The notes beneath the pieces are model-generated. The model had not been told where the DNA came from, did no database searches, and saw only the letters and a list, made by a program, of their open reading frames with translations. From the sequence record SRR31156797_1028: a stretch of 39,575 nucleotides of DNA, one strand, 5' to 3'. This document shows positions 9,999 to 33,902 of this stretch, piece by piece (position 1 is the first letter of the stretch; each line of letters begins with the position of its first letter). Made by a program: the position numbers and the translations under genes.

Positions 9999-10339
9999 GG
10001 TGATATGGTCAATTCTGGTGTTTGAGAATTCTCAAACGACAGCCCGGTTATATTCGCCTTCCCCTGTGGATTTAACTCGTTCTCCATCCTTGAATTGAAT
10101 CCCTTGTATCACTACAGCTAATAATTAAAAGCCTCATTGTCTGCGCCATTTATCTGTACGCTCAGGCCAAGTTTATAAACATAGCTAACGTGTATGCCTC
10201 GCAACACAGCCTCGTGTTTTTACCGTCCTCAGCCTTACTGTCGCAAAGGTTGACTCAATAGTTTTGTCGATCTGATTCCAGCAGGATACGTGTTTTTCTT
10301 TTTTATGTCTCACTCAAGCATCACTTTGGATCATAACTC
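9999..10339 (-). mobile_element. 341-bp internally deleted IS256-family element with both ends and 9-bp target-site duplication
   Basis: Minus strand encodes a decayed IS256 transposase C-terminus (IESTFATVRLRTVKTRGC...IQGIQFKDGE..., about 10259-10032); ends GAGTTATGATCCAAAGTGATG / GTGATATGGTCAATTCTGGTG; direct repeat GACCACCTC at 9990-9998 and 10340-10348. Confidence 0.88.
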
Positions 10340-10472: not shown

Positions 10473-10706
10473 ATGAGTGTTCCCATGAAAGAAGATCCGA
10501 AATGGGAAGAAATAGTAACGGGGAAAAAAAAATATGTGCTTAAGTTTTTAGGTGCGAAAATATTACTTGGCCGGTTACTTCGCACCATTGAGGTCGACCC
10601 GTCTCCCCATAATATAGCTGTAGCTGTTAATGAGTTGCATGCCTTGTATTCAAAAAACGTAGCAATTAAATCAGCTAAGGATGACCTTAAAACTATTTTT
10701 GGATAA
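10473..10706 (+). CDS. Small hypothetical protein (77 aa) coupled to the FIST-like gene
   Basis: RBS GGAG, plausible helical composition, stop 7 nt before ATG 10714. Confidence 0.75.
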   Translation: MSVPMKEDPKWEEIVTGKKKYVLKFLGAKILLGRLLRTIEVDPSPHNIAVAVNELHALYSKNVAIKSAKDDLKTIFG

Positions 10707-10713
10707 GAAACAT

Positions 10714-11709
10714 ATGTACCAAGGATTATTAAGTATTGATGAAGCACGCCAACTTATTCTAGATGGTAAAATTCTGTTAATCGCAGGGGGTGAAGAGTTG
10801 CTGGCGCAATTGCCAGTAGGCGATTGGGTAGCAGGGACCAGCCCCTGTTTTATTTGCCCAAACCACTATGGCATCGTTGCTCATGATCAGCTCTTTGTTT
10901 CGGATATTTCCCAAGTTGCTGATTCCTGCCATATAAAAGTCTATGATGAAAATGAACTTACTTCTATATACAATGAGGCTGGCGAGGGTGGGTTCAGTGT
11001 TATAATTATTCCAGCAACAAGCTCTGTACATACGGGCTTTGCTTTGGATGCACCAAACTACGATAATTTTGGCAGCCAACCTTTGATAGGTTGGATTGCT
11101 GGTGTCCCCATTGACCAACTGGAAGAAAGACGGCCAAGGGTGTTCAACGGCAAGACAGGGGAATCATATATTGACCAAGCCATTGTTATGCATGTCGATA
11201 TTGTAGAGGGAAAAAGTATTGATATCGGTCATGTGAATATTTTCACCCAAGGCAATGGCGATACATTAACTTTTTCTGAGGATGGCTTTTCCTTTATCGA
11301 TGTAATGGTCAATGGAGTAAAGGTGAACTTCACAGACTACATTGCCAAAAATAATATTGATATTCGATTGCCACTTGTCGCTGATTATTATGGTGCGTTA
11401 GTCAATATCAGCTTACAAGATGTAGACACGAAGAAAGGTGTCCGTTTTTACGCACCAGTTTTTGCTGGAGTTAAGTATAAATGGGCTGCACCTTTTGATA
11501 ATTATAGTGATACTTTCGCTAGTAAAATTAAAGAAATAGGTTTGGAATCATCAGAGATCGTGATTGCCTGTAACTGCATCCTTAATTATTTGCATTCGCA
11601 CCTTGAAGGGAGTGAAAATGAACAGTTCACAGGACTTGTTTCTTACGGTGAAATAGCCTATCAGCTTATGAATCAGACCTTGGTCTATCTCCTTGTGTCT
11701 GATAACTGA
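10714..11709 (+). CDS. Stand-alone FIST-like protein (DUF6976-type)
   Basis: LLIAGGEELLAQLP.GDWVAGT.P N-terminus, PLIGWIAG, PLVADYYG, FYAPVF, CNCILNY, YGEIAYQLMNQT (FIST_C-like end); start set at ATG 10714. Confidence 0.75.
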   Translation: MYQGLLSIDEARQLILDGKILLIAGGEELLAQLPVGDWVAGTSPCFICPNHYGIVAHDQLFVSDISQVADSCHIKVYDENELTSIYNEAGEGGFSVIIIPATSSVHTGFALDAPNYDNFGSQPLIGWIAGVPIDQLEERRPRVFNGKTGESYIDQAIVMHVDIVEGKSIDIGHVNIFTQGNGDTLTFSEDGFSFIDVMVNGVKVNFTDYIAKNNIDIRLPLVADYYGALVNISLQDVDTKKGVRFYAPVFAGVKYKWAAPFDNYSDTFASKIKEIGLESSEIVIACNCILNYLHSHLEGSENEQFTGLVSYGEIAYQLMNQTLVYLLVSDN

Positions 11710-11821
11710 TGTATTTGTCGTTTATATAGGATGTAAAGAGTGCCAGGAGAGAAAAATAAAATTCGTCACAAGCCTTTGTCGCCAGCTGTACATTACTAAG
11801 TATAACATGTTTGGGTTTATA

Positions 11822-12952
11822 ATGAGGATGCATCCATACTTGAGACTTTTTTTAGCCGTTGTCGTAGTTTGTCATACAGTTTTCTTGTTTTCCGGTTGCA
11901 GTCCACGTCAACCGATTAAAATTGGTTTTCTTGGGGGGACGACAGGGAGGGTGGCCGACCTAGGTATATCAGGTCGAGATGCAGTCCAAATGGCGATTGA
12001 AAGTGTGAATACTGACGGAGGTGTTAAGGGAAGACAAATACAGCTGATTGTAAAAGATGACCAGCAGGACCCAGACAAGGCCAGGCAGGGAGTTGAAGAG
12101 TTAATTAAGGAGCAGGTTGACGCTATTATTGGGCCAATGACTAGTGATATGGCAATGGTTGTTGCTCCTCTGGTGAGTGCAGCAAAAATAGTTACTGTTT
12201 CTCCCACTGCCAGTACTGCCAAACTATCCGGACACGATGATTATTTTTTTAAAATTTCAACGAGCACCCGGCAAAACGGGGCAAAGAGCGGAGCGTATCA
12301 TGCTCAAGCGGGAAAGATGCACAGGCTTGCAGTTTTGCATGATTTGGGCAACCAGGCATATAGTGAAAATTGGCTGAAGAACTTTACCCGACCCTTTCTT
12401 GAAAGAAAAGATAATGAAATCTTAGGGGTTATTGGGTTTGATACCCAGTTAGGGGTGAGCTTTACAGAAGTTGTTGGTAAAGCGTTTGTTCTGAATCCGG
12501 ATGGAATTTTAATTATTGCAAATTCAATGGATTCTGCACTTATTTGCCAACAAGTACGAAAAATCAATTCTAAGGTACATATAACACTGGCAGACTGGGG
12601 GGCAACAGAGCGACTTCTTGAGCTTGGCGGAAAGGCCGTTGAAGGAGTGACTGTGATCCAGGTATTTGACAGGAAGAGTGCAAATCCTCGTTACGTGGCA
12701 TTCCGGGAAAAATATATTGAGCGCTTTAAACAGGAGCCTGGTTTTGCTGGTGTACTGGGATATGATGCCGCAACAGCTGTTATCAGCGCATTGCAGCACC
12801 AAAAAAAAGGCCAATCTTTAAAGAGTGTCTTTCTTGAAACTGAATTTGAAGGCCTTCAAGAAGTAATTAATTTTGATACATTTGGTGATAGAGGGCAGAC
12901 ACAGGCAACCATGGGCATGGTTTCTAATCAGAAGTTTATACCGCTAGAGTAA
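11822..12952 (+). CDS. Type 1 (LivJ/K-like) periplasmic binding lipoprotein
   Basis: Lipobox FSGC, PIKIGFLGGTTG, N..GGVKGRQIQLIVKDD, AIIGPMTS, GYDA; start at 11822 or 11828. Confidence 0.9.
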   Translation: MRMHPYLRLFLAVVVVCHTVFLFSGCSPRQPIKIGFLGGTTGRVADLGISGRDAVQMAIESVNTDGGVKGRQIQLIVKDDQQDPDKARQGVEELIKEQVDAIIGPMTSDMAMVVAPLVSAAKIVTVSPTASTAKLSGHDDYFFKISTSTRQNGAKSGAYHAQAGKMHRLAVLHDLGNQAYSENWLKNFTRPFLERKDNEILGVIGFDTQLGVSFTEVVGKAFVLNPDGILIIANSMDSALICQQVRKINSKVHITLADWGATERLLELGGKAVEGVTVIQVFDRKSANPRYVAFREKYIERFKQEPGFAGVLGYDAATAVISALQHQKKGQSLKSVFLETEFEGLQEVINFDTFGDRGQTQATMGMVSNQKFIPLE

Positions 12953-12955
12953 GTA

Positions 12956-15900
12956 ATGGCCAAACGTACCTCTCTCCTCCACTACACCGCTAAACGGTTT
13001 TTCCTGATTATTCTGGTTCCTGTAATTGTTATTACAGCATTGGTTTGGCTTGCACTTTCTCCTGTCATTCGAAGTAGTATCACCAATCAGAACCAATCTT
13101 TGGCAAGAACTGTTTCAGGCCAGATATCTGCCCATCTTGATGGTGGTGAGCGTCAGTTAATTGCTCTTTCAAAAATAATAACTGACAACGGTGGGCTGGG
13201 AAGTGACCCAATAATCGCCATGCTCGACTATACCTGTGGCGATGGTGAGCTTTTTGAGACAGTATATATAGCTTCTGATCAGGGGAAGCATATCAGGTAT
13301 GTCGGTTTGGCGAGCTCAAGGCGTTTTCAGCGTGATGACTTTCTGGGGCTAGATATATCCAGTCGTAACTTTTATTCCAGTGACCTTCAAACCGGGCAGT
13401 TGATCTGGTCAGATCCTTTCCTCTCAACAGTTAGCGGGTGGCAGGCTGTAGCTGTTGTCGTACCCCTTTCACACAGCGTGCTTGTAGGGGAGGTTACCCT
13501 AGAACGCCTTTCTGCATTTATCAGTAATCTACCCCTTGAAGCACAATTTCGTACATTTGTATGGGACAGGAAACAGCGTATTCTGGCAGATTCCAAAATG
13601 TTGCTTGCTGGCCAGCACCTGACCGGCACATTAATTTTCCCTTCTGCTGATAAGGGTAAAGACAAAGGCTTGCGTTCTTTTAGTGTTGCAGGGCAAAAAT
13701 TTGTTGGATCCACAATGGGTATACCTAAACTTGGGTGGACTGTGCAGGTCGCGCAGTCTTCGCAATATGCCTTTCAACCTGTTGTAACTACTTTTATAAT
13801 TATCATTATGGGGCTGGTTGTCAGCCTTGTGTTCATTACATTTGTTTCTATACAGCAAGGGACAATATTTTCTGAACACATTGCAAATTACATTGAATAT
13901 GCACGCTCCATAGCGAGTGGGCAGTACAACATTAAATGCCCATCATTTAGGATTGTGGAGTATCAGGAATTGGCCAGCAGTCTGCAGTCAATGGGAAAAA
14001 CGATTCATGAGCGCGAGCAAAAGCTTATGGAAAGTGAGAACTACATGCGTATTACACTGGATTCCATTGGGGATGCAGTTATTACCACTGATACGCAAGG
14101 AGAGATCACCCAACTTAATCCAGCCGCTGCCATGCTTACCGGTTGGGAGGCCACAGAAGCGTCTGGCCATAAACTGACAGATGTGTACCAGGTTGTTGGT
14201 CTTGATTCAAGGTTGCCGGTGGCTGACCCTGTAGAAAAAGTATTGGCAACAGAATCAACTGTTGAGCGGCCTGAAAATGGTATTTTGATTAGTCGTGAGG
14301 GGGATGAATATCTGGTTACAGAAAATGGATTTCCAATTCTCGATGCTGAAGGTAACTGTATTGGAGTTGTGCTAGTTTTTCGTGACGTAACAGAAGCTTA
14401 TACCCAAGAACTCATCATACGTGATAACGAAAGCAGGCTTAGGCAACTGACTGAAAATATACCCGGTGCTGTAATTCAGATACGGACAACTGTTGATCAT
14501 GTATTCCAGAATGAATTTTTGAGTGCAAAAACGAGTCAGATCTTTGGGCTTGATGTTCAAGGCGACAATCTGTTGGATCAATTTTTTCAATGCATTCCTG
14601 ATCAAGATAAAGAACGCTACACTCTTTCCATGCAACAGGCTGTTAAGAGCGTTGTTCCATGGCATTATGAGGGCCGTTTTAATAGACCGGATGGTCAGTC
14701 AATCTGGTTTAGTGCGGATGCAAATCCCAGAATAGATGGCGACTCTGTCATTTATTATGGGGTGCTAAGAGATATTACTGCCAGGAAGATGATCGAGCAG
14801 CAATTACAAGATAGCGAGGAACGTTTTCGTTTACTTGCAGAATCCTCGCTCACCGGCATTTATCTTATTCAGAATGGTCGGTTTACATACGCAAATAATG
14901 CTATGGCAGCAATGTTTGGCTACGAGGTGGATGACATCGTTGATTGCATGGACGTGGAAAATTTGATTTATCAGGAAGATCTCCCTTTGGTACGTGAAAA
15001 ATTACGCCAGAGAATCACGGGGGAGAGGGAGTCAGCACGTTATTCATTTAGGGGGCTGAAAAAGGACGGTCAGGTTTTTCATGCTGAAGTGCATGGTCGT
15101 GCCATTTTGTATCAGGGCACACGCGGCGTCATTGGTACATTGATAGATGTTACCGATCGTATTCATTTTGAACAGGCTTTACAAAAGAGTGAGAAACGTT
15201 TCAAAAGCCTTTTTAATGATGCTCCCATGATGTACGTCATAACAGATGGCAGTACTGAGAGAAAAATAGTTGATGTGAATGATACCTTTTTAAAACGTCT
15301 TGGGTACTCAAAGGAAAGCGTTTTGAATACACCATTGACCACGTATTATACGGCTGACTCGGTTGACCGTATGGTAAAGAGGTCAAAAGAGACCGAAGCT
15401 TCTAAAGTTGGCAAGCTGCCAGTGGAACGACAACTCCTGACTATTGATGGGCAACTGGTTTCTGCGCTCGTTGATTCTGTTTCTGAGTATGGCGAAGAGG
15501 GGGATGTGACAGGTCTCCGGATTATGTTGCTTGATGATACTGAGCGAAGAAAAGCCGAAGAGGAGGTGAATAAATTGCGAACCTTTCTCACAAACGTCTA
15601 TAATTCAATGCCCTCGGTCCTGATAGGGGTAGATACGCACTTACGGGTGACGCAATGGAACAAGCAGGCAGAGCATTATACAGGTGTTGTCTTTTCAGAT
15701 GCCGCGCTTGAACTGCTGCCGGAAGTGTACCCGGAAATGGCCGAGCATGAGGGTGATATTAGGGTGGCCATTGCAACCGGACAAACCGTTTCGACTTCAA
15801 AGATACCCGTTGCAAGAGATGGGGTGGCTGGGTTTGAGGACATAATAATCTATCCTATCCTCGGAGGCAAAGAGGGGGCTGTAATCCGCATTGAAGACGT

Positions 15901-16708
15901 TACCCACAGGGTACATATGGAGGAAATGATGATCCAGAGTGAGAAAATGCTTTCTATCGGTGGGCTCGCTGCTGGAATGGCACACGAAATCAACAATCCT
16001 CTCGCAGGTCTTATGCATAATTCACAAATAATGGAAAACAGGCTGTTCGGTGACCTTCCGGCAAATGATAAGGCTGCACAGGCTGTTGGGCTTGATATTG
16101 CCGTTCTCCATGAGTATATGCAAAAGCGAAAGTTGCCTAAGTTGCTTGGTCATATACAGGAATCTGGGTCGCGAATTGCCGCAATTGTCAACAATATGCT
16201 CAGCTTTTCCCGAAAGAGTGAAAATGTTTCCTCAACCTATGAATTATGTCACCTGCTTGATCAAACTGTTGAACTGGCCCAAACAGATTATGACATGAAA
16301 AAAGGTTATGATTTCAGGTCAGTTGAGGTAAAAAGAGAATATGATCAAAAAATGTATGTTATTTGTGAGGGGAGTAAACTGCAGCAGGTTTTTCTTAATA
16401 TATTGAAAAATGGTGCCGAAGCTATGGCCGAGTCTCCGAGTAAGGCATCCTCAAAGTTTATTCTCAGGGTCATGGAGGATGGAGGTTGGGCAAAAGTTGA
16501 AATAGAAGACAACGGGCCTGGCATGGATGAGATAACGCGTAAGAGGGTCTTTGAACCGTTTTTTACCACCAAAGGAGTGGGAAAGGGAACAGGCCTGGGG
16601 TTATCTGTATCATATTATATTATTACAGAAGACCATGGTGGTAAAATGCAGGTGCAATCAACACCAGGTCATGGTTCAACATTTATCATTCACCTTCCTA
16701 TGACCTAA
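12956..16708 (+). CDS. Membrane sensor histidine kinase (Cache-like, HAMP, five PAS, HisKA/HATPase)
   Basis: Two TM segments; five PAS starts (LDSIGDAVI, TENIPGAVI, AESSLTGIY, FNDAPMMY, YNSMPSVLI); AHEINNPL H-box; DNGPGM, FFTTK, GTGLGL. Confidence 0.95.
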   Translation: MAKRTSLLHYTAKRFFLIILVPVIVITALVWLALSPVIRSSITNQNQSLARTVSGQISAHLDGGERQLIALSKIITDNGGLGSDPIIAMLDYTCGDGELFETVYIASDQGKHIRYVGLASSRRFQRDDFLGLDISSRNFYSSDLQTGQLIWSDPFLSTVSGWQAVAVVVPLSHSVLVGEVTLERLSAFISNLPLEAQFRTFVWDRKQRILADSKMLLAGQHLTGTLIFPSADKGKDKGLRSFSVAGQKFVGSTMGIPKLGWTVQVAQSSQYAFQPVVTTFIIIIMGLVVSLVFITFVSIQQGTIFSEHIANYIEYARSIASGQYNIKCPSFRIVEYQELASSLQSMGKTIHEREQKLMESENYMRITLDSIGDAVITTDTQGEITQLNPAAAMLTGWEATEASGHKLTDVYQVVGLDSRLPVADPVEKVLATESTVERPENGILISREGDEYLVTENGFPILDAEGNCIGVVLVFRDVTEAYTQELIIRDNESRLRQLTENIPGAVIQIRTTVDHVFQNEFLSAKTSQIFGLDVQGDNLLDQFFQCIPDQDKERYTLSMQQAVKSVVPWHYEGRFNRPDGQSIWFSADANPRIDGDSVIYYGVLRDITARKMIEQQLQDSEERFRLLAESSLTGIYLIQNGRFTYANNAMAAMFGYEVDDIVDCMDVENLIYQEDLPLVREKLRQRITGERESARYSFRGLKKDGQVFHAEVHGRAILYQGTRGVIGTLIDVTDRIHFEQALQKSEKRFKSLFNDAPMMYVITDGSTERKIVDVNDTFLKRLGYSKESVLNTPLTTYYTADSVDRMVKRSKETEASKVGKLPVERQLLTIDGQLVSALVDSVSEYGEEGDVTGLRIMLLDDTERRKAEEEVNKLRTFLTNVYNSMPSVLIGVDTHLRVTQWNKQAEHYTGVVFSDAALELLPEVYPEMAEHEGDIRVAIATGQTVSTSKIPVARDGVAGFEDIIIYPILGGKEGAVIRIEDVTHRVHMEEMMIQSEKMLSIGGLAAGMAHEINNPLAGLMHNSQIMENRLFGDLPANDKAAQAVGLDIAVLHEYMQKRKLPKLLGHIQESGSRIAAIVNNMLSFSRKSENVSSTYELCHLLDQTVELAQTDYDMKKGYDFRSVEVKREYDQKMYVICEGSKLQQVFLNILKNGAEAMAESPSKASSKFILRVMEDGGWAKVEIEDNGPGMDEITRKRVFEPFFTTKGVGKGTGLGLSVSYYIITEDHGGKMQVQSTPGHGSTFIIHLPMT

Positions 16709-16750
16709 TCAGCAAATACTGGAAGAAATATTACAGGCTCCGTTATTAAT

Positions 16751-19213
16751 ATGAGTGACCCACGTATTTTGATAATTGATGATGAAAGAGCGATTCTAGA
16801 TTCGTTTCAAGAATATCTTGAAGACTATGGTTACCATATTTTCACTGCCTCAAATGGTCGCGAAGGTCTGGATGTTTTCAAAGATAAGAAGCCGGATTTA
16901 GTCCTTGTTGATCTTCGTATGCCTAAAGTTGGTGGGCTTGAAGTCTTGAAAGAGGTAAGTGCTTCGTCTCCATTGACCCCTCTTATCGTCGTGTCGGGAA
17001 CTGGTAATGTGGGGGATGCAGCCAAAGCACTGCAAAATGGTGCATGGGATTATTTGTTAAAGCCTCTGGAGGATTTGTCTTTTTTAAGGCATGCAGTGGA
17101 GAAAGGGCTTGAAAAATCACAACTTAAGAAAGAGAACCATCAATATAAAAACTACCTGGAAAAGCTTGTTTTAGAACGGACAGTTGAGCTAAAGCATGCT
17201 AATACCCATCTTGAAGAGGTTAATCAGCGGTTACGCGACATAGTGGAAACCATAAAGACCCTCTCTTTTTGTAAGGATATAAAGGATTTTGGTGTCTTGC
17301 TCCTCAAAGAGTTTAGCCAACACATGAAGGCTGAAGGTGGATCTGTTTACCTGAAGAAAACAAATGGATTGCACTTGCTCTATTCTCTTGAGGGAAATCA
17401 CGCAACAACCTTTATTCCATTTCCTTTACCAGAAAATTCAGTGTTTGACAGGGCTGTAAAGGGCAAAAGGCCTGTGCTGCAGAATAATCTGGGGGCAAGT
17501 GATCCTGTTATCCCAAGCGGGTGGGAAGGGTATAGAAATACCAGTGTATTAGTCTTTCCTATACAAGATGAAACAGGAGACCTTGCGGCACTCATCACTT
17601 TTCATGATAGGGTAACGCCTCCTTTTTTAGAACAGGATATTGAAATTGGTAATATTTTAGCTTCTTACATCGGTGAGGCATTGTATGCTGTTAAGAGTAA
17701 TGAACAGTTAGCAGATAGTGAAAAGCGTTTACGCCAGATCTTGGATTTTCTTCCGGTGGGAATTTTTATCGTTGATGTGGAAACAGATACTGTAAGTTAC
17801 ATTAACCCTCATGCGACATCTATTCTCGATAAAAAAGCCGATGATATATTAGGCAAAAAATATAGAGACGTGCTGCATTCTCAACAACTGCAAGGGCTGG
17901 AGCAATATCAGGCTGATAAAGGGGAGCAGCTGCTTTTGCATGTGAATGATAAAGAAGTCATTGTGTTGCGAGAAGCAGCTCTTGCTGTGATTGGGGGGCG
18001 TGAATCATATATTGAGTGCGTCTTAGACATTACAGATCAGATTAAAACTAAAGAGGAGAAAGAAGCCTTGCATCAGCAACTGTTACATGCTGATAAAATG
18101 AAGGCTCTTGGGACTCTTGCTGGTGGTATCGCGCATGACTTTAACAATGTATTAAGTGCCGTTATTGGGTATTCAGACTTGTGTTTGCTTGAAGTGAAAA
18201 GTCAGGAAGGGACGATTTATAATAAACTACAGGCGATAATTCAAGCGGCATACAGGGCAAGAGATCTTGTTGAACAAATAAGAGCGTTTAGCCGTATACA
18301 GCAACAACTGATGATTCCTTTAAACATTGGCCCTGTTATTCGTGAGGCCGTAAAGTTTCTGTCCTCTTCATTGCCTGCAAACATCAAAATTGAGACAAGT
18401 CTTAATAGTAATAAACCTATAATTGGTGATCCAACCCAAATTCATCAGATAATAATGAACCTGTGCACCAACGCCTATCAGGCTATGGAGGAGACTGGTG
18501 GTACCTTATCGATAGACTTGGCAGAAATAACAATAAATGAGCAGCAATTAATGACCAAGTCACGCCTTGAATCTGGCTCCTATTTAGAACTTACAATTAC
18601 TGATACGGGGACGGGCATATCCCATGACATTTTTGACAAAATCTTTGACCCCTACTTTTCAACAAAAGGGAAAACGCTAGGCACAGGGTTAGGGCTTGCG
18701 ATTGTCAATCGCATTGTCAATCAGCATAATGGGGAGGTATCAGTTCGTAGTGAAATAGGGAAGGGATCAACTTTCCAAATTTACTTACCGATTACCAAGG
18801 CAGAAGTAGGTGAAGAGGCACATCACAACAACACGCTTAGTAAAGGTACTGAGCATGTGCTGTTTATTGATGATGAGGAAACACTTGTGCAGATTGCGAC
18901 AGAAATGTTTCACCATTTGGGCTATAGTGTCACAACAAAAAATGACAGTGTGGATGCTATAGAATGGTTTCGAAAAGATCCTGATCAGTTTGATCTTGTT
19001 TTTACAGACTATAATATGTCGGATTTCAATGGTATGCAGTTGGCTCAAGAATTACATGCTGTTCGTCCAGATATACCGATAATACTTTGTACTGGGTACC
19101 CTGATCAAATCGATCAATCACGAGCGAAAGCCGTAGGGGTAAAAAAAATTGTAAGAAAGCCTTTTTCGATGAGTGAGCTGGCCGATGGGGTTAGAGAAGC
19201 TCTAGACGCATGA
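16751..19213 (+). CDS. Cytoplasmic hybrid kinase/response regulator REC-GAF-PAS-HisKA-HATPase-REC
   Basis: N-terminal REC (IIDDE, VDLRMP), GAF-like segment, PAS, AHDFNN, GTGLGL, C-terminal REC (IDDE, TDYNM, KPF). Confidence 0.93.
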   Translation: MSDPRILIIDDERAILDSFQEYLEDYGYHIFTASNGREGLDVFKDKKPDLVLVDLRMPKVGGLEVLKEVSASSPLTPLIVVSGTGNVGDAAKALQNGAWDYLLKPLEDLSFLRHAVEKGLEKSQLKKENHQYKNYLEKLVLERTVELKHANTHLEEVNQRLRDIVETIKTLSFCKDIKDFGVLLLKEFSQHMKAEGGSVYLKKTNGLHLLYSLEGNHATTFIPFPLPENSVFDRAVKGKRPVLQNNLGASDPVIPSGWEGYRNTSVLVFPIQDETGDLAALITFHDRVTPPFLEQDIEIGNILASYIGEALYAVKSNEQLADSEKRLRQILDFLPVGIFIVDVETDTVSYINPHATSILDKKADDILGKKYRDVLHSQQLQGLEQYQADKGEQLLLHVNDKEVIVLREAALAVIGGRESYIECVLDITDQIKTKEEKEALHQQLLHADKMKALGTLAGGIAHDFNNVLSAVIGYSDLCLLEVKSQEGTIYNKLQAIIQAAYRARDLVEQIRAFSRIQQQLMIPLNIGPVIREAVKFLSSSLPANIKIETSLNSNKPIIGDPTQIHQIIMNLCTNAYQAMEETGGTLSIDLAEITINEQQLMTKSRLESGSYLELTITDTGTGISHDIFDKIFDPYFSTKGKTLGTGLGLAIVNRIVNQHNGEVSVRSEIGKGSTFQIYLPITKAEVGEEAHHNNTLSKGTEHVLFIDDEETLVQIATEMFHHLGYSVTTKNDSVDAIEWFRKDPDQFDLVFTDYNMSDFNGMQLAQELHAVRPDIPIILCTGYPDQIDQSRAKAVGVKKIVRKPFSMSELADGVREALDA

Positions 19214-19346
19214 TTTTTCCTTACGATCCTCTAACTGTACTTAACATCATTAGATGGTAAATCTTTTGTGGTTGTGTGACCTAATAGAGCAAGTAGGTCT
19301 TTTTATTGTCATGGGAAAACGTTTTTGGAATTATAAGGTTTAGCAT

Positions 19347-20726
19347 ATGGCAAAAAATATTTTAATTGTTGATGACGATAAGAACCTTTGCTTAATGATA
19401 GCCAGTTTGTTGGATGCATCAGGGTATAATACGCAAAGTGCATTCAGTTTGAATAGTGGGTACGAGATAGCTTTAACCAGCAGTTTCGATATCATTATGC
19501 TTGATGTACAACTGCCTGATGGGAATGGATTGGAATCCATTCCTCGTTTTTCAGCGCTTCCATCACAGCCAGAAATCATTATTATGACGGCGGCCGCCGA
19601 CTCCGATGGTGCCCAAAAAGCAATTGAGTCTGGAGCCTGGGATTACCTGGAAAAAACAAATATTATCAGGGAGCTAATGCTGCCTGTTACCAGAGCTTTG
19701 CAGTATAGGGAAGAGAAAAAAAAAATTGCATCAGCGCCAATTGTTCTCAAACGTAAAAATATCATAGGTGACAGTGGCGCTATAACTCAGAGTCTGGAGC
19801 AAGTAGCTTATTCGGCCGCAAGTGATGCTGCTGTTTTGATAACCGGTGAAACGGGAACAGGCAAAGAGGTCTTTGCCCATGCAATACATGACAACTCAAA
19901 GAGAGCAAAAAATAATTTTATTATTGTAGACTGTGCTGCATTACCTGCAACATTAATAGAAAGTAATCTTTTTGGTCATTCCAGGGGAGCATTTACAGGG
20001 GCTGATAAAAATAGTAACGGACTTATACTACAAGCGGATAGCGGTACACTTTTTCTTGATGAAATTGGTGAACTTCCCCTGGAGATACAGAAAACATTTC
20101 TCAGAGTTCTTCAAGAACGACGCTACCGGCCTGTTGGCAGTACAAAAGAAGTCTCTTCTGATTTTAGGGTAATTGCTGCTACAAATCGTAATCTAGAAGA
20201 AATGGTAGCCAAGGGTGGGTTCAGGGAGGATTTATTGTTTCGTTTAAGGTCCTTTCATATTGAGCTTCCTCCACTTCGTATGCGAGAAGGGGATATTTCG
20301 GAGTTAACACATTTTATTCTAGGAAGACTATGGCAACGGCAATGCCAGGATCCTAAAGCCATAAGCCGGGAATTTATTGAGTACCTTGAGCTTTACGATT
20401 GGCCGGGTAATGTGCGTGAGCTGCAGCAAACCCTTGAAGAGGTTGTTGCTCGTTCACAAGGTCACCAAACATTATTTGGTTTTCATCTGCCTGGTAGGAT
20501 TCGAATTAAGGCAACACAGGCTAACTTAAGCAATAGTGGGAAAGTAACTTCTGCAAACGGTATTATAGGGCCTAAAACCAAACCGTTGAAATGGAAAAAG
20601 TATAAAGGGGATATGGAGTCACAATACCTTAAACAAGTTATGGCCTACTGTGAAGGGGATGTGAAGCAGGCTTGCGAAGTCTCTGGAATATCCCGTGCAA
20701 GGCTTTATGAACTTTTAAAGAAATAA
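19347..20726 (+). CDS. Sigma54-dependent response regulator (NtrC-family enhancer-binding protein)
   Basis: REC (DVQLPD), Walker A GETGTGKE, intact GAFTGA, FLDEIGE, WPGNVREL, C-terminal Fis-type HTH. Confidence 0.96.
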   Translation: MAKNILIVDDDKNLCLMIASLLDASGYNTQSAFSLNSGYEIALTSSFDIIMLDVQLPDGNGLESIPRFSALPSQPEIIIMTAAADSDGAQKAIESGAWDYLEKTNIIRELMLPVTRALQYREEKKKIASAPIVLKRKNIIGDSGAITQSLEQVAYSAASDAAVLITGETGTGKEVFAHAIHDNSKRAKNNFIIVDCAALPATLIESNLFGHSRGAFTGADKNSNGLILQADSGTLFLDEIGELPLEIQKTFLRVLQERRYRPVGSTKEVSSDFRVIAATNRNLEEMVAKGGFREDLLFRLRSFHIELPPLRMREGDISELTHFILGRLWQRQCQDPKAISREFIEYLELYDWPGNVRELQQTLEEVVARSQGHQTLFGFHLPGRIRIKATQANLSNSGKVTSANGIIGPKTKPLKWKKYKGDMESQYLKQVMAYCEGDVKQACEVSGISRARLYELLKK

Positions 20727-20765: not shown

Positions 20766-20967
20766 ATATATTCTATTTACACCTGTTCTGATCGCAGATG
20801 CGCAATAGAACCTATTTTCGCTGTTCTAATATTCTTTTTGTTTCAAACTCTTTTTCGGAAAACAAGGCTTTTAAACTTGCGGGCAGCAAAAACTATGAGT
20901 TGTGTTTTTTGTCCTAAGGTTCTGTAGTTAAGTCTTTTTTGTGCTAGTGGTCGCGTTTTTCTAGATG

Positions 20968-20983
20968 TGGCACATATTCTGTA
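20968..20983 (+). promoter_or_regulatory. Sigma54 -24/-12 promoter (non-canonical -12)
   Basis: TGGCACATATTCTGTA: GG-N10-GT rather than GC; 40 nt upstream of ATG 21024. Confidence 0.55.
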
Positions 20984-21023: not shown

Positions 21024-21410
21024 ATGAACCTGCTTTTTTACAGTTTAACCGACAGTGCGCACCGGTCTGAGCTTCTCCGTAAATTTGAGCTTATTATCCC
21101 CCAGCACCCCATTACAGACTTAGGTGTAGGCGGAGGAGTTGTTTCGCCGCTGTCCTTTACCATGCGTAGTGGTGATGTTATCATTGTGTATGTGGCTGAG
21201 CTCTATGAACTTGAGGTTTTGGTGGGGGCCCAAGAAAAGCTAGAAAGCTTCAGGAAAATCATACTATTGGAAAGCGGAGAGCTAGATCATTATTGGTTCT
21301 CTCTTTGCCGGCAGTTATCCCCCAGGTATATCGCCCACGGGTATTGTGCTGTGGAGGAGGTTGCAATTGTAGCATCAAAAATGATGGGGAATTACCTAAA
21401 AGGTAACTGA
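21024..21410 (+). CDS. Hypothetical protein, receiver-domain sized alpha/beta (128 aa)
   Basis: RBS AAGGA; alternating strand/helix pattern (LLFY, VIIVYV, KIILL, LSPRYI). Confidence 0.7.
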   Translation: MNLLFYSLTDSAHRSELLRKFELIIPQHPITDLGVGGGVVSPLSFTMRSGDVIIVYVAELYELEVLVGAQEKLESFRKIILLESGELDHYWFSLCRQLSPRYIAHGYCAVEEVAIVASKMMGNYLKGN

Positions 21411-21513
21411 AATTAGCCTCGAATAATTTGAGGATTAATACAACATAAAAGATGTACGAGTTGATGCATTTATTCATAACTCAATTTTTTTGGTGTGTGT
21501 CTTGTCTCCCTGG

Positions 21514-22395
21514 TGTCAATGGCAATCTAATAGTGTACCAATGTCGGTAATTGAAAAGTGTACCACCCATAGCCTCTTTACTCCGTGATCAGTTCGATCC
21601 ATTTGTTGCTTTTGTTTCTGTTCTTTGAAAATTTGTTTGAAACGAATGACCTCTGAGTCGTTGGCTAATCGCTATGTAGCTATGGCCTTTGATGTTAACC
21701 ACTCTGTAGTGACGGAGTAGCCTGTCCCGTATGGCCGTTGCAATGACCGGATCACCAACGAGTTCCTGCCAGTCTCCAAAGCTTTTGTTGGAGGGATTGA
21801 TCGTAGAGCTTTGTTCATATCTGTGGGAGGCAAACCTGAAAAAGAGATATACCTCTTTGGTTCTTACTGGCAGTTATCTACCTTGCCAACGAGTACTAGG
21901 TCAGGGAGGTGTACTTGGCCGTGACGGAATCGTTTGGATTTGCAACCTGAAGATTGCACCAGTCGACTTGCGCCTGTAAACCGGGCACAGTTTTAAAACC
22001 AGCATAGGCTAGACGACTACCGCGTTTTTTGGCCGAGCGTCCATGCGTTTTCACTGCTTTATAGGAACCAGAGTATCCCATCTTTTTCAAACCGTCATGG
22101 ATACAGGTGGATTGATAATCGTCTGCAGCGAGGCAGTCGTCTATGATTTGCCGATAAGGATCAAGGATGGAGGCCTGTATCTTTGGTTTGCGACATTGAG
22201 GAAAAGTGGCCTTTAATATGCTTTTTTACAGTGTTCCGTGAATACCAATTTTCTTGCCAAAGGCACGCATACTTGACCCTTGAGGTATACTGAAATAATG
22301 TGCATGGAAACCTCCGCTGTAATCATCCTGCTCACCTCCTCAATGGAGAGGGTAAACCGGAAGGGAGGTGGTACAGTTCTATCTCGCCAGTGACA
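21514..22395 (-). mobile_element. istA/istB: Internally deleted, decayed IS21-family element (istA 5' part joined to istB 3' part)
   Basis: Ends TGTCAATGGCAATCTAATAGTGTACCA and (reverse) TGTCACTGGCGAGATAGAACTGTACCA; IstA from 22326 (SILDPYRQII...MGYSGSY...TVPGLQAQVDW) and IstB tail (SNKSFGDWQELVGDPVIATAIRDRLL...VNIKGHSY, stop 21589-21591). Confidence 0.92.
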
Positions 22396-22537
22396 TGATA
22401 CGGCGGGGTGGGAGTAGGCACGTTAACAGGCAGGTGCAAGTTGGTGAGGGGTTGGTTTTTTCGATGCCTGCATTTTATTCCCCTTAGATCAGCTGGATAT
22501 TAAGGGCCCTATATAGTAACAGGAGTATTGGTATTCC

Positions 22538-24464: not shown

Positions 24465-24495
24465 TCTGAAAAAACAGACTGTCTGTCTTTCTGGA
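24465..24495. promoter_or_regulatory. Paired palindromic enhancer (UAS)-like sites, copy 2
   Basis: TCTG-AAAAAA-CAGA (24465-24478, identical to 20734-20747) and TCTG-TCTTTC-TGGA (24482-24495). Confidence 0.7.
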
Positions 24496-24705: not shown

Positions 24706-24721
24706 TGGCATGTAGCTTGCT
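24706..24721 (+). promoter_or_regulatory. Sigma54 -24/-12 promoter
   Basis: TGGCATGTAGCTTGCT fits TGGCAY-N5-TTGCW. Confidence 0.8.
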
Positions 24722-24852: not shown

Positions 24853-25119
24853 GGCCTTATTGACCGTATTGATCGTATTAAGACGAATATTCAAAAGACA
24901 AAGGCGTTCATGGATATCGATCACAAGGTTATCTTTGCCTACACTCTTTTTGATGGCTTATCATCCTCAGAATCCTTTTTTATGGAAGCACTCTATGATT
25001 CAGGCCTTTTCCCTTGTCTGTTTGTTGGTGGTTCTGCAGGGGGAAAGCTTGATTTTAAAAACACATGGCTTCATGATGGACAAAAACAGTATAAAAATTA
25101 TGCACTCATAGCATCTTGA
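24853..25119 (+). pseudogene. Internal fragment of a FIST_N domain (FIST-MCP type)
   Basis: Frame open from 24820: DRIDRIKTNI...DIDHKVIFAYTLFDGLSSSESFFMEALYDSGLFPCLFVGGSAGGKLDF, with FIST DGL and GGSAG motifs; both ends missing. Confidence 0.8.
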
Positions 25120-27526: not shown

Positions 27527-27564
27527 GGCAACAAGATAATGCTTGATTACATTATCTTGTTGCC
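27527..27564 (+). terminator. Strong stem-loop after MCP
   Basis: Perfect 15-bp stem GGCAACAAGATAATG / CATTATCTTGTTGCC with 8-nt loop; weak U-tract. Confidence 0.65.
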
Positions 27565-29070: not shown

Positions 29071-30297
29071 TTGAACTGTCTTAAAATGAGTGAAAATGTC
29101 TTTCAGCTTAAGGTTAACATAGAAGAACCAGGCTATTTGTTTGAAGGGCTATGGCCAGTCCCTAATGGCGTGAGTATCAATAGCTATCTTGTTAAGGGTG
29201 AGAAAACAGCTATCATAGATTTAACACAGGATATTTATGATTTAACGCAATCTTTTGAACTTCAATTAGAGCAAGCTGGCGCAGGGTTGGAAGTCCTTGA
29301 TTATGTGATAATCAATCATATGGAGCCAGATCATTCAGGGCTGCTGCGCGACCTGGTAAAAAGAAATAGTACTTGTCGATTTGTCTGTTCAAAAAAGGCT
29401 GCGCCCTTATTGGAACACTTCAGCTCGGTTCCCATGGACAGGGTAGATACTGTTGAAGACGGCGACAGTTTAGATTTAGGGAATGGAATGGTTTTGCATT
29501 TCTACCTTATTCCCAATGTTCATTGGCCGGAAACCATGGCTACTTATCTTGATAATGATAAGATATTATTTCCGTGTGATGCTTTCGGCTCGTATGGTGC
29601 TGTGAAAGACCAAGTGTTTGATGATCAACTTTCTGAAGAAAGAGCAGCTTTTTTTGAACAGGAGGCCTTGCGCTACTACGCAAATATTGTTGCAACATTC
29701 TCTCCTTTTGTTGAGAAGGCAATCAGTAAGCTCGAAAGTTTGCAGATTAAAGTTATCGCTCCGTCTCATGGCATAGTTTGGCGAAAAGACCCGGCTGTGA
29801 TTATTGATCATTATAAACGTTATGCTTCATACGCAAAGGGGCCTGCAGAACCAGAGGTCTGTTTGGTATGGGCTTCAATGTATGGTAATACAGGGAAATC
29901 CATAGCATCTCTTATCAAAGGGATACGGTCTGAAGGTGTAGGTGTAACTGTTTTTCGTGCTCCCCAGGATGATCTGGGACATATATTAGCTGCGGCGTGG
30001 AAAGCGGCTGGATTGGTTTTTGCGATGCCTACTTATGAGTATAAAATGTTTCCACCAATGGCCCAGGTGATTGAAGACCTAATGGTCAAAAAGGTGAAAA
30101 ATAGAAAGGTGTTGCGGGTTGGTTCATATGGCTGGGTAGGTGGAGCGGAAAAAGACTTTAGAAGAAAAACCGAAAAGGCTGGATGGGATATCATGGAAAG
30201 TATTGAGTTTCAAGGGTGCCCAAGCAGTGCAGATTTAGCTGCAATGGAAGAAGCTGGTAAAAAGTTGGCTATGAATATAAAACAATTCTGCAATTAA
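29071..30297 (+). CDS. fprA: Class A flavodiiron protein (A-type flavoprotein; O2/NO reductase family)
   Basis: Diiron ligands NHMEPDH, HWPET, CDAFG, PSHG; flavodoxin SMYGNT and GSYGW; TTG start after AGGAG. Confidence 0.94.
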   Translation: MNCLKMSENVFQLKVNIEEPGYLFEGLWPVPNGVSINSYLVKGEKTAIIDLTQDIYDLTQSFELQLEQAGAGLEVLDYVIINHMEPDHSGLLRDLVKRNSTCRFVCSKKAAPLLEHFSSVPMDRVDTVEDGDSLDLGNGMVLHFYLIPNVHWPETMATYLDNDKILFPCDAFGSYGAVKDQVFDDQLSEERAAFFEQEALRYYANIVATFSPFVEKAISKLESLQIKVIAPSHGIVWRKDPAVIIDHYKRYASYAKGPAEPEVCLVWASMYGNTGKSIASLIKGIRSEGVGVTVFRAPQDDLGHILAAAWKAAGLVFAMPTYEYKMFPPMAQVIEDLMVKKVKNRKVLRVGSYGWVGGAEKDFRRKTEKAGWDIMESIEFQGCPSSADLAAMEEAGKKLAMNIKQFCN

Positions 30298-30302
30298 GCA
30301 AA

Positions 30303-30460
30303 CTAGCTTGAGTTCTCTCCTGGCTTTTTAAGATCAATGTTTTTGCTTTTTCTCATGACGTATCCTGTTGGAATCAGTTCGCCAAAACTAGAAACCAACA
30401 AAAAAAGATACGTCATTTCATTTTTATGTCTCCAGCAAACACCACTTTCGATCATAACTC
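30303..30460 (-). mobile_element. IS256-family left end plus first transposase codons
   Basis: Minus strand GAGTTATGATCGAAAGTGGTGTTTG matches the left end at 10339 (22/25); leader hairpin, then ATG 30356 MRKSKNIDLKKPGENSS*. Confidence 0.8.
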
Positions 30461-30585
30461 ATTTCTGATGCGGTTGTATTTGCTCCGTTATCTCCAGTTC
30501 GCTTTGTCTGTCTCACTTGGCGAGCTGACTCCATTTTTTAATCGCGCTCCACAAAGATAACCAGATTTGTCGATATTTTAATGCG

Positions 30586-30619
30586 TCCATTTTCCCAGAT
30601 AGTAGTCTGCTTTTCCGGA
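30586..30619. promoter_or_regulatory. Paired palindromic enhancer (UAS)-like sites, copy 3
   Basis: TCCA-TTTTCC-CAGA (30586-30599) and TCTG-CTTTTC-CGGA (30606-30619). Confidence 0.6.
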
Positions 30620-30763
30620 CAAAATGCAATCCTTTTAATCCAATCTCCAGGAAACAAGAATTCTAAAAACAATAATTTTCACTCCTCTTCCCTTTCAGCA
30701 ATTGCTTACTTCTTTTCTATTGTTAAGAGAAAATGAGAAGTGATCATTTAAGCTGAAGTGGTT

Positions 30764-30776
30764 TAAGTGTTTAATA
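30764..30776 (-). promoter_or_regulatory. IHF-like site between UAS and sigma54 promoter
   Basis: Minus strand TATTAAACACTTA, one mismatch to WATCAANNNNTTR, in an AT-rich tract. Confidence 0.4.
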
Positions 30777-30883
30777 TTTATTTGTTTTTATGGGTTTATT
30801 GTTTATGGCTTTCAAGATTTTCTTCGGTGATTGATGGGTTTTGAGTTCATTTTATTCTATGTGAGTAGAAATAAAAATAAAAG

Positions 30884-30899
30884 TGGCACACTCAATGCA
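30884..30899 (+). promoter_or_regulatory. Sigma54 -24/-12 promoter
   Basis: TGGCACACTCAATGCA: GG-N10-GC. Confidence 0.75.
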
Positions 30900-30909
30900 A
30901 TGAACTAAG

Positions 30910-31320
30910 TGTTCAACATTGAGGGAAAGTCGTCCTGCACTTGAAACAAAACAATTCAAGCGACTTATTAGATACAACTATAAAAAAAGATGACCTTGGC
31001 TTTGGTTGCGTGACCGTTAGTAGTTCATACTTTTTGTAAATAAAGGTCGCTTTGTATTTACAGTGGGTCGGCCCCCTTAGGGTGACTATAAAAGTAGGTA
31101 TAGGCCAAATAAGGCCATATCACCTTACTCTGTTGAAGCGATGATTGCTCATTACTGTTGAATATGCGGAGGCCTGACCAGTTAACGTCTATTCAATATT
31201 GTTTAATTTGCACTCACCAGCACCATAGTGCTCCAAGAGCAGCATGATTAATGGTGTACCATGAGAAGGCCCGTTTGTATTTACCGCGACGTACTTCAAC
31301 GGGCCTTCTCTTCTCCTTTC
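30910..31320 (+). ncRNA. Candidate sigma54-dependent structured ncRNA (~400 nt)
   Basis: Lies between a sigma54 promoter and a 13-bp terminal stem; serial hairpins; no ORF with an RBS seen. Confidence 0.5.
31263..31320 (+). terminator. Terminal stem-loop with pyrimidine tail
   Basis: GAGAAGGCCCGTT / AACGGGCCTTCTC perfect 13-bp stem (31263-31310), then TTCTCCTTTC. Confidence 0.65.
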
Positions 31321-32327
31321 ACGCCAATGGCTTATATTAATGAGTAGACTTTGGTGGCGAACGGAAACAATTGATTGGTAAAATAAGTATTTACTGTTTT
31401 TGTAATCCTTTGCTGGGGGTCTGTTCGTTACTCCGCCCTTAGTGAAAGGCTAAAATGAAAATCATGGGTTGAAGTCATTTACGCCGTGACGGTTTTTTTA
31501 TTAGTGGAAAGAAAAAGTAGGATTGCCTTATCAAGCTGCCATATCCGCATCCTGGCTGTTCTACGACACCCCCTCTGTCCTCTTTTAGGATTAAAGGCCC
31601 ATGATAGATGTTACTTGTACAGTAAAAGAGATTGATGCCATGAGATTTTTTTGTTTGCACGACTATGTGATGCAGGGAACTTATCTCCTTACACCTCTGC
31701 ATCACATGGTTAACACCATCGGCTAAATTGATATGCTATTGCAGTTAGTGTATCAGCTTTTATCATCACATTACTCAATGCTCCACCCTTTATGGCATCA
31801 GCGCTTATTGCAATGGATTGCCTGGGTATGGAGTCGTCCTCAAAAAGATAATATTTCGGTAGTGAACTAATTTACGATAACTGTTGTTCGCATTTTCAAG
31901 TTATTTGATGTTTGCATTGTTACCAGAGTCGTATTCTTGGTGGTAAAGACTACTAAAGATGAGACTTCATGCTCCCCAGGAAATATTCTTTTGCTAGTTC
32001 TCCCTTTTTTATCATATTATTAATACTATACTGTGCGTTAATCACACTTAGAGACATTATCTGCTCTCCAGCTCTTTGGAAGTGTGTAAGTGGAAATGTT
32101 CCTGGAATGTGAGGGAGCTGAAGAGATTCAGCCTGATGAGTAATGCGTATCATCTGTTTTGATAATGGAATGACCAACGTCAAATCCTCCCCTCATTCAT
32201 GACGATGTCAGGCAGGTTGTGACCTGTCTCGGGTATTGTTGAGTGGGTTAAGGTTCATATATCTTTGATTTTGATAAACATTACTTTCATGAGTTGGAAC
32301 TTGTAATACGATTGCCAGGAGATTGTA

Positions 32328-33902
32328 ATGATGGTTGATAAGCTGCCTAGGTTATTGCGCGAGGATGAACTTGCAGAAATGCGGGCAATGAGCATGGAGC
32401 GCCATGGCCTCGGGATATACCAGTATACGTTGAAGGGTGTTATAACCTATATAGATCGTGTTACTCTGGATATCTTTGACTTGACAGAAGATTATCCTGA
32501 TCCTTCGGTAGTGATTGGCAAAGAAATCAAGGACCTGATCGTTTATACCGCCAAGCAGGGTAGCGTGAGAGAGCGTGTCCAGGATGAGGGACATTTTTTT
32601 GGCCATACCTATCACTACAAAACACTCAAAGGTGATGATCGATGGTGCCTTCATGATGCCTACATGGTTCAGCACCCGGAAACTGGTCAAGATCTGGTAC
32701 ATATTGTCCTTCGAGACATTACTGAGCTAAAGCTAGCGGAGGAGAGTCAGAAAATTCTTCAAGAGCAACTGTATCAGGCTCAGAAAATGGAGGCCATCGG
32801 CCTGTTGACCGGCGGTATCGCCCATGATTTCAATAATATCCTCCAAGTCATCATAAGTAGCGGGGAAATTGCGATACTTGAAAGCGAAGCCGGAAAGCAA
32901 GTAATGAAGCGCCTAGAGGAAGTCGTGAAAGCTGGAAAAAGGGCTAAGGCGTTGGTGGCTCAGCTACTGGCCTACAGCCGCCAGCAGTTACTGGAGACAC
33001 GAGTTTTGAACCTCCGTGACCATGTACATGATATGCTGCAGATGCTTAAGCGTATCATAGGCGAAACGGTTACATTACGCTTCATTAGTGAGGATGATGG
33101 ATTGGTGGTTAAAGCGGATCCTGGGCAGTTGGGGCAAATACTGACTAATTTATGTGTAAACGCTCGTGACGCGATGTCCGGCCGGGGAGTCATAACTATT
33201 GAGGCGACCAAGGAACGTATTTCGGATGATTATTGTAAGGTGAATTCATGGGCTTCACCGGGCGAGTATATCGTTCTGGCGATATCAGATACTGGTTGCG
33301 GGATGAGCCGGGAAACGTTGTCTCGTATCTTTGAACCTTTCTTTACCACCAAAGAAGTCGGGCAGGGCTCGGGCTTGGGGCTTTCCACGGTATATGGAAT
33401 TGTTAAGCAACACCATGGGTTCACCAATGTGTATAGTGAAATTGGGCAAGGAACCACATTCAGGGTTTATCTGCCGCATGTAAATCAGGCAGTTTCTGCA
33501 GCGACGCAGCATATGGAGAAAAATCTGCCAACCGGTACAGAAACCATTCTTGTGGCAGAGGACGATGATGCTGTTCGGATGTTAACCTGTAACATACTTG
33601 AGCACGCTGGTTACCAGGTAATTGAAGCTCGAGATGGACTTGAAGCTGTTGAACGGTTTAAAAAGAGACACAGTGAGATTAATCTATTGCTGTTTGATGT
33701 TATAATGCCCTGCCTTGGGGGACCTGATGCTTACGCACAAATACGACAATCTCATCCGGATGTCAAAGTGCTGTTTACCAGCGGATACAGTATGAATGCC
33801 ATTTACTCGAATTTTGAACTGCATGACGGGGTTATGTTGCTTCGAAAACCAGCCGGTCGGCGTGATATTCTCGAGAAAGTTCGTGTCACTCTGGACTCCT
33901 GA
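32328..33902 (+). CDS. Cytoplasmic hybrid histidine kinase PAS-HisKA-HATPase-REC
   Basis: PAS-like N-terminus ending RDITE, AHDFNN, NARDAM, DTGCGM, GSGLGL, REC (AEDD, FDVIMP, RKP); RBS AGGAG. Confidence 0.94.
   Translation: MMVDKLPRLLREDELAEMRAMSMERHGLGIYQYTLKGVITYIDRVTLDIFDLTEDYPDPSVVIGKEIKDLIVYTAKQGSVRERVQDEGHFFGHTYHYKTLKGDDRWCLHDAYMVQHPETGQDLVHIVLRDITELKLAEESQKILQEQLYQAQKMEAIGLLTGGIAHDFNNILQVIISSGEIAILESEAGKQVMKRLEEVVKAGKRAKALVAQLLAYSRQQLLETRVLNLRDHVHDMLQMLKRIIGETVTLRFISEDDGLVVKADPGQLGQILTNLCVNARDAMSGRGVITIEATKERISDDYCKVNSWASPGEYIVLAISDTGCGMSRETLSRIFEPFFTTKEVGQGSGLGLSTVYGIVKQHHGFTNVYSEIGQGTTFRVYLPHVNQAVSAATQHMEKNLPTGTETILVAEDDDAVRMLTCNILEHAGYQVIEARDGLEAVERFKKRHSEINLLLFDVIMPCLGGPDAYAQIRQSHPDVKVLFTSGYSMNAIYSNFELHDGVMLLRKPAGRRDILEKVRVTLDS

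Follow-up and report, generated by a model that had tools for sequence, protein, structure and literature searches.

Our analysis of a 39,575-nt stretch of DNA (record SRR31156797_1028; hereafter the window) suggests that a gene-free gap in its distal part contains a free-standing sigma-54-dependent transcription unit, the product of which would be a discrete non-coding RNA of about 400 nt with functional ends. We assign this reading, which is drawn from sequence comparison, a probability of about 0.5. An initial annotation of this DNA had proposed an undescribed sigma-54-driven RNA built from serial hairpins. The core of that proposal stands, as the promoter core, the first 13 nt of the predicted transcript and the 3' hairpins are kept in a sister species and the candidate finds no counterpart in Rfam; its multi-hairpin architecture does not. 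The hairpin chain, impressive in one sequence, is mostly unconserved, and the promoter, the stretch at +1 and the last hairpins hold all of the signal.

Results

The locus and its only close relative

The candidate lies in a 2-kb gene-free gap (30298-32327) between a flavodiiron-like gene (29071-30297), which borders the gap upstream, and a hybrid histidine kinase gene (32328-33902, + strand). The latter is the next + strand gene after the gap and begins about 1 kb beyond the candidate, in agreement with the initial annotation. Upstream of the gap, a signalling cluster is organized as a five-gene operon (10681-20726) encoding a DUF6976 protein (Pfam E 1e-121), a periplasmic binding protein, two kinases (a 1250-aa Cache/PAS kinase and a REC-GAF-PAS hybrid kinase) and a sigma-54 enhancer-binding protein (19347-20726). 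The operon is followed by genes for a GGDEF protein, a chemotaxis receptor and a sigma-70-family factor.

One relative carrying the locus was found, the genome G515, which is about 87-90% identical to the window in the neighbouring genes and is the sole match among 119 genomes of the family. When a 20-kb DNA query was run against 301 genomes of the order containing a Desulforhopalus-titled metagenome-assembled genome, with two candidates per genome scored, G515 was 82-87% identical over several kb. Between the genes for the enhancer-binding protein and the flavodiiron-like protein, gene order is the same in both genomes, and the BLAST match ends exactly at the stop codon of the flavodiiron-like gene (window position 30300). 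A further block within the gap (window 31247-31717) aligns to G515:C173:11476-11027 with 71% identity (BLASTN), with contig and strand unchanged. The flavodiiron gene and this block are about 5.9 kb apart in G515, and between them lie an extra 7TMR-DISM GGDEF gene and a frameshifted transposase gene (Transposase_29 fragments; locus L183, G515:C173 12480-16356); downstream of the block there is a LysR fragment. The locus is single-copy, with one instance in G515 and no paralogues. The same G515 contig also carries a Pycsar-effector-like gene (PycTM, 8144-8590).

Wider searches returned little. BLASTN with the window copy matched 2 of the 119 family genomes, the second of them (G638) through a palindromic repeat alone, and BLASTN with the G515 copy matched 3 of 119, where, apart from G515, the matches came down to the repeat and 31 nt of low-complexity sequence. 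The covariance model R1, built on the 3' hairpins, gave hits in 3 of 119 genomes with E ≤ 1, of which two had E ~0.85, and neither BLASTN nor nhmmer with the gap matched anything in a set of 162 loci. The flavodiiron-like neighbour reached at best 57% identity among the matches listed from genome contigs and at best 58% in metagenome contigs. The kinase at 32328 had no match in metagenome contigs; its homologues P0001 (69%) and P0002 (64%) lie on short contigs. A protein search with the DUF6976 protein matched 2 of 301 genomes (46% identity) in the order of G001, which is the wrong order. In G582 (locus L166), where the flavodiiron gene is 75% identical, ordinary ORFs lie downstream and no sigma-54 promoter is found there. 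As far as these searches reach, the element is confined to the organism of the window and one sister species of a Desulfobulbales-like genus.

The surroundings of the candidate also contain remnants and repeats. An IS21-type remnant lies at about 21400-22400 on the - strand (IstB fragment, E 2.6e-16, in a frame with stops), and since window positions 21397-22393 are skipped by the G515 matches, it is an insertion in the genome of the window. A short repeat with features of an inverted repeat closely follows the flavodiiron-like gene (30355-30460), has another window copy at 10259-10339 and is present at no fewer than four loci in G515 (contigs C175, C191, C110 and C172), where it matches in either orientation; in appearance it is REP- or MITE-like. 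Upstream of a 128-aa ORF without a Pfam family (21024-21410), the sequence GTGGCACATATTCTGT at 20967-20982 has a good -24 element and TGT in place of the -12 GC, as judged by eye only.

A perfect sigma-54 promoter and an invariant predicted start

In sigma-54 promoters, a GG at -24 is separated by 10 bases from a GC at -12, within the consensus TGGCAC-N5-TTGCW. The GG-N10-GC promoter of the initial annotation was recovered: TGGCACACTCAATGCA at 30884-30899 (+ strand) reads TGGCAC-N5-ATGCA, with zero mismatches, and is the only zero-mismatch match to TGGCAC-N5-WTGCW in the 39.6-kb window, where 0.17 perfect matches are expected by chance and one or more occurred in 16 of 100 shuffles. The orthologous position in G515 carries another perfect sigma-54 promoter, TGGCACGGTGATTGCT, with unchanged spacing; it precedes the BLAST block by about 330 nt, compared with about 348 nt in the window. 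The two promoters are identical at 11 of 16 positions; TGGCAC and TGC are intact and the spacer alone is altered. The DNA upstream of the promoter (30700-30883) has 46% ungapped identity to G515, which is the level of unrelated flanks, and is unalignable. Sigma-54 itself (rpoN) is encoded in G515, as indicated by the Sigma54_DBD family (9e-63).

Immediately downstream of the promoter, none of the ten positions from -10 to -1 (30900-30909) is identical in G515, and identity jumps to 13 of 13 exactly at the predicted start. This invariant 13-mer, TGTTCAACATTGA (30910-30922, + strand), starts in both genomes 12 nt downstream of the C in the -12 GC, and the usual sigma-54 spacing rule places the start of transcription at its first base and thus makes it the predicted 5' end of the transcript. 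Two palindromes, TGTT-C-AACA and TCAA-CA-TTGA, overlap within it, and it may serve as a seed or as an operator at +1. One exact copy exists in G515; exact and one-mismatch copies together number 13 there against 7 in the control, which is uninformative. Equally uninformative was a count of potential targets, in which the complement of TGTTCAACATTGA with up to three mismatches occurred at 26 sites in the window against 21.8 expected.

A fast-diverging body

Segment identities were taken from a global alignment of the window with G515 and scored per segment. As a neutral yardstick we used fourfold-degenerate sites in three neighbouring genes, which are 65% (210/324), 84% (121/144) and 77% (120/156) identical. 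The body of the predicted RNA, about 300 nt in length (30923-31219, + strand), carries hairpins 1-4 of the initial annotation, and its ungapped identity to G515 of 56%, measured over 30923-31220, is below the fourfold-site baseline of 65-84%. Identity rises to 73% at 31221-31310, is 70% at 31311-31717 and falls to 44% past 31717. The homologous non-coding block beyond the hairpin (31323-31717, + strand; 71% to G515) is thus about neutral; locally, nothing but the promoter core, the +1 stretch and the hairpins stands out. Every frame of this block is broken by stop codons in G515, and it may or may not be transcribed. At its end lies a palindromic repeat (31648-31716) with 11-bp arms, ATGTGATGCAG and CTGCATCACAT, copies of which are present in G515:C169 and at two loci of G638.

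The pentamers TTCAA/TTGAA, which make several of the hairpin arms, occur 7 times in 30909-31320 against 1.2 expected, and none of 2000 shuffles had as many; in the G515 copy the enrichment is absent (2 against 1.3 expected).

Predicted pairing is kept at the 3' end

All six hairpins of the initial annotation are present in the sequence, for example AAGTCG/CGACTT with CTTGAA/TTCAAG at 30927-30966. They do not, however, form a conserved architecture: four of the six, hairpins 1-4, are not preserved in G515, which has other hairpins at broadly similar positions. Folding of the 421-nt stretch was stronger than that of every one of 100 dinucleotide shuffles (z -3.5), but the opposite strand folds equally well (z -3.6), so folding energy alone says little. 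We used RNAalifold on the two sequences, with column shuffles that preserve the conservation pattern. The 5' half (30905-31110) gave no signal (z -1.0, with 13 of 100 shuffles as good; z -0.5 on the - strand), whereas region 31225-31325 had on the + strand a structure conservation index (SCI) of 0.88 with z -6.6, the - strand values being 0.47 and -1.9.

Two hairpins make up this 3' structure. The first, the fifth of the initial annotation, has an outer stem GCACCAT/ATGGTGT (31220-31257, + strand) in which 7 of 7 pairs form in both genomes, with one wobble change; its inner TGCTC/GAGCA stem has no counterpart in G515. The second is a 13-bp GC-rich stem with a 4-bp apical extension (31263-31310, + strand; arms 31263-31275 and 31298-31310). 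This is the perfect 13-bp stem followed by a pyrimidine tail that had been described initially, and it is present with arms one base off the position then implied. All 16 modelled pairs form in both genomes, with two compensatory changes (C-G to U-A and A-U to G-C) and two wobble changes; the stem folds at -24.2 kcal/mol in the window and at -18.1 kcal/mol in G515, and the loop CCGCGACGTA is identical in both. We regard this stem as a putative terminator or 3' stabiliser.

Taken together, the double hairpin keeps 23 of 23 pairs (46/46 cells paired), with two compensatory and three one-sided wobble changes, compared with 32-63% of cells paired in slid-partner controls. The observed covariation values were reached in 153 of 500 shuffles, and as there are two sequences only, the covariation carries no statistical weight; the tested structure was also derived from the same two sequences. 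The conservation of 3' pairing is accordingly read as suggestive, and the structural conservation in a homologue on which the initial proposal depended is seen at the 3' hairpins, in G515 only, and not in the 5' half. The G-U pairs make the 3' structure specific to the + strand, and all stem substitutions preserve pairing, on the + strand alone, which is the best sign to hand that transcription may proceed on this strand through 31310.

The stem is followed by a pyrimidine-rich tail, TTCTCCTTTCAC (31311-31322, + strand; TTTCTTCTTCTAT in G515), which has 7 U in 12 bases with a longest run of 3, and hence no clean U-run. The hairpin ending the chemotaxis-receptor gene (27527-27564) likewise lacks a U-run. 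A consensus terminator scan returned no terminators; the 22-nt loop of the stem is above its limit.

No coding sequence and no recognised family

No ORF longer than 86 codons from stop to stop occurs in the gap, and as possible small-protein genes there are only ORFs of 30-41 codons. In tblastn of all stop-to-stop ORFs of at least 20 codons against G515, none was conserved beyond nucleotide identity, and the longer frames carry stops there. Read through in six frames and compared with Pfam at E ≤ 1, the 2-kb gap matched no family. The claim that the region has no ORF led by a ribosome-binding site was therefore upheld, inasmuch as no credible or conserved ORF was found.

The initial annotation recognised no known family and had suggested an Rfam scan, which gave no match in the window or in G515, whether at gathering scores or at E-value thresholds, apart from a single chance-level match of the window to an unrelated family at E up to 5. 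Sponge RNAs of the CsrB/RsmZ type carry many GGA or ANGGA motifs in loops. The candidate differs from them in being poor in GGA (2 in 412 nt against 5.1 expected, with one ANGGA), just as had been noted from the sequence at the outset.

Activator sites and a second sigma-54 promoter

A pair of upstream activator sites and an IHF-like site had been described before the promoter, and neither found support. No palindrome or 12-mer upstream of the 30884 promoter is shared with G515 or with a second sigma-54 promoter (at 24706) beyond shuffled controls, in a comparison of two genomes with a crude shuffled control, which may have missed a degenerate site. The IHF consensus has one match, with one mismatch, at about 30776 on the - strand.

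The second promoter, TGGCATGTAGCTTGCT at 24706-24721, precedes the chemotaxis-receptor gene by about 590 nt. It is kept in G515, and a similar promoter is found near the orthologous receptor gene in the more distant G464. The leader between this promoter and the receptor gene is unconserved, and in the alignment with G515 most of the window's leader falls opposite gaps or in columns of poor alignment. In both the window and G515, the palindrome ACAGACTGTCTGT (ACAGAC-N-GTCTGT; 24474-24486 in the window) lies 220-232 nt upstream of the promoter and is a candidate enhancer site for it. Right behind the promoter, at about 24920-25107 (+ strand), there is a fragment of a FIST N-domain gene (Pfam E 1.9e-9, with stops in the read-through frame), a decayed gene that follows a promoter of intact appearance.

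Neither the window nor G515 has ACAGAC-N-GTCTGT upstream of the 30884 promoter. The idea that the RNA is the output of the neighbouring cascade is thus unsupported: no enhancer site is common to the two sigma-54 promoters, and nothing in the sequence appears to tie the 30884 promoter to the enhancer-binding protein encoded nearby.

Discussion

Several points stand against an RNA with functional ends. Four of six hairpins are not kept, and the body is 56% identical, compared with 65-84% at fourfold sites. The block past the hairpin (70%) is as conserved as the hairpin region (73%), so the hairpin need not end the functional unit. The tail has no clean U-run, the terminator scan returned nothing and no enhancer site was found for this promoter; moreover, the FIST fragment behind the 24706 promoter indicates that promoters before dead DNA do occur in this genome. 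The body identity, under the neutral range, would also fit a relic: the orphaned sigma-54 promoter and terminator would then be left from a gene that disappeared or decayed before the two species separated, with non-functional DNA in between and any transcript being noise. Decaying and mobile DNA is indeed nearby (the IstB/IS21 fragment at about 21.7 kb, the FIST fragment and the repeats at 30355-30460 and 31648-31716), transposase fragments lie beside the G515 copy, and the element is found in two genomes only. A relic does not sit well, however, with the retention of the promoter core, of 13 of 13 positions at +1 and of six structure-preserving hairpin substitutions, when positions -10 to -1 and the upstream DNA have been randomised, nor with the finding of no protein-family remnant in six frames. 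We consider a relic rather unlikely, while still giving it real weight. The locus might instead act at the level of DNA, with the TGTTCAACATTGA palindromes and the inverted repeats serving as protein-binding or recombination sites and not as RNA features. TGTTCAACATTGA, being palindromic and placed at the start site, could be bound by a repressor, the folding z-scores are equal on both strands, and TTCAA/TTGAA is enriched in the window copy (7 against 1.2 expected). On the other hand, the G-U pairs of the G515 hairpins would turn into A-C mismatches if the opposite strand folded or the DNA formed a cruciform, the TTCAA/TTGAA enrichment is missing in G515 (2 against 1.3), and TGTTCAACATTGA has one exact copy in that genome, with one-mismatch copies (13) not far above the control (7). 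A purely DNA-level element thus seems very improbable.

It is also conceivable that the promoter serves a downstream gene, namely the kinase at 32328, through a long 5' leader or attenuator in which the hairpin is a regulated pause or an attenuator. A long sigma-54 leader exists in this very region, that of the chemotaxis-receptor gene, with a conserved promoter about 590 nt upstream and an unconserved leader; the G515 homology runs about 400 nt past the hairpin, and the tail is an imperfect U-run. Against this, about 1 kb separates the hairpin from the gene, with a second strong palindrome at 31664-31716 on the way. G515 has no kinase orthologue (at best, residues 113-524 are matched with 43-45% identity), the block there gives way to a LysR fragment, and the homology stops at 31717, 600 nt short of the kinase, and these three findings make a conserved leader of the kinase unlikely. 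Transcription may nevertheless read through into the 32328 gene in the window's own genome. Because the flanks differ in G515 and the kinase has no orthologue there, the conserved unit stands alone.

We thus favour a discrete, free-standing sigma-54-dependent RNA. In this model, an enhancer-binding protein would activate the 30884 promoter, and the + strand RNA would start at TGTTCAACATTGA, at about 30910, and would end at, or be stabilised by, the 3' double hairpin, its 3' end falling at 31311-31322. Constraint would act on the 5'-terminal 13 nt and on the 3' hairpins with their conserved apical loop, and the middle of about 300 nt would drift freely. The RNA may act in trans, either via its 5' end by base-pairing or via the 3' hairpin loop by binding a protein or another RNA. 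The Hfq family was not found in G515, a genome that may be incomplete; since no Hfq gene was found in this sister genome, the RNA may act without Hfq. A more specific proposal, which we put forward tentatively and with considerable doubt, is a genus-specific riboregulator of about 400 nt in which only the ends are selected, with a 13-nt seed at +1 and a 3' double hairpin bearing an invariant CCGCGACGUA loop, and which may be Hfq-independent. If this were true, the sulfur-cycling Desulfobulbales would have a class of sigma-54 output RNA that is modular and evolves fast. The Desulfobacterota encode unusually many sigma-54 activators, and a stand-alone RNA of this kind, if real, would add a non-coding output to the sigma-54 network of a lineage without studied RNA regulators, as well as provide an example of a small RNA with constrained ends and a drifting middle.

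Non-coding RNAs that depend on sigma-54, such as Qrr, CrcZ, NrsZ and Pxr, are an established kind. The Qrr RNAs of Vibrio are LuxO/sigma-54-dependent and Hfq-dependent, about 100 nt long and present in several paralogous copies. The predicted arrangement resembles theirs in that a sigma-54 promoter drives a non-coding RNA ending in a hairpin, but differs in that the candidate is about 400 nt long and single-copy, with no Rfam match, no activator sites found and no Hfq in G515. The functional analogy to Qrr RNAs drawn in the initial annotation is therefore unsupported, given the single copy, the length of about 400 nt and the lack of a detected Hfq gene in the sister genome. The CbrB/sigma-54-dependent CrcZ and CrcY of Pseudomonas are protein-sequestering RNAs of about 400 nt with several A-rich AANAANAA motifs. 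The candidate shares with them the sigma-54 promoter, the length and a stand-alone gene in an intergenic gap; in contrast, it has no AANAANAA motif in either the window copy or the G515 copy, no Rfam match and an unconserved body, and no Hfq was found in G515. It belongs to none of the RNA families named here. Pxr of Myxococcus, which is likewise sigma-54-dependent, and NrsZ of Pseudomonas are shorter than the candidate and conserved across many species, whereas the candidate is known from two genomes. In the reconstructed regulome of Desulfovibrio vulgaris, four sigma-54-dependent non-coding RNAs are reported (PMC4641369); they give a precedent within the phylum, in a shared setting of bacteria that are rich in enhancer-binding proteins and have sigma-54 promoters before non-coding RNAs. 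Pxr and NrsZ are reported to be regulator-controlled small RNAs (PMC5684412, PMC4253122), and of the stem-loops of Pxr two are reported to be highly conserved, with a third varying much more. The unequal conservation of the Pxr stem-loops resembles the conserved ends and variable middle of the candidate RNA.
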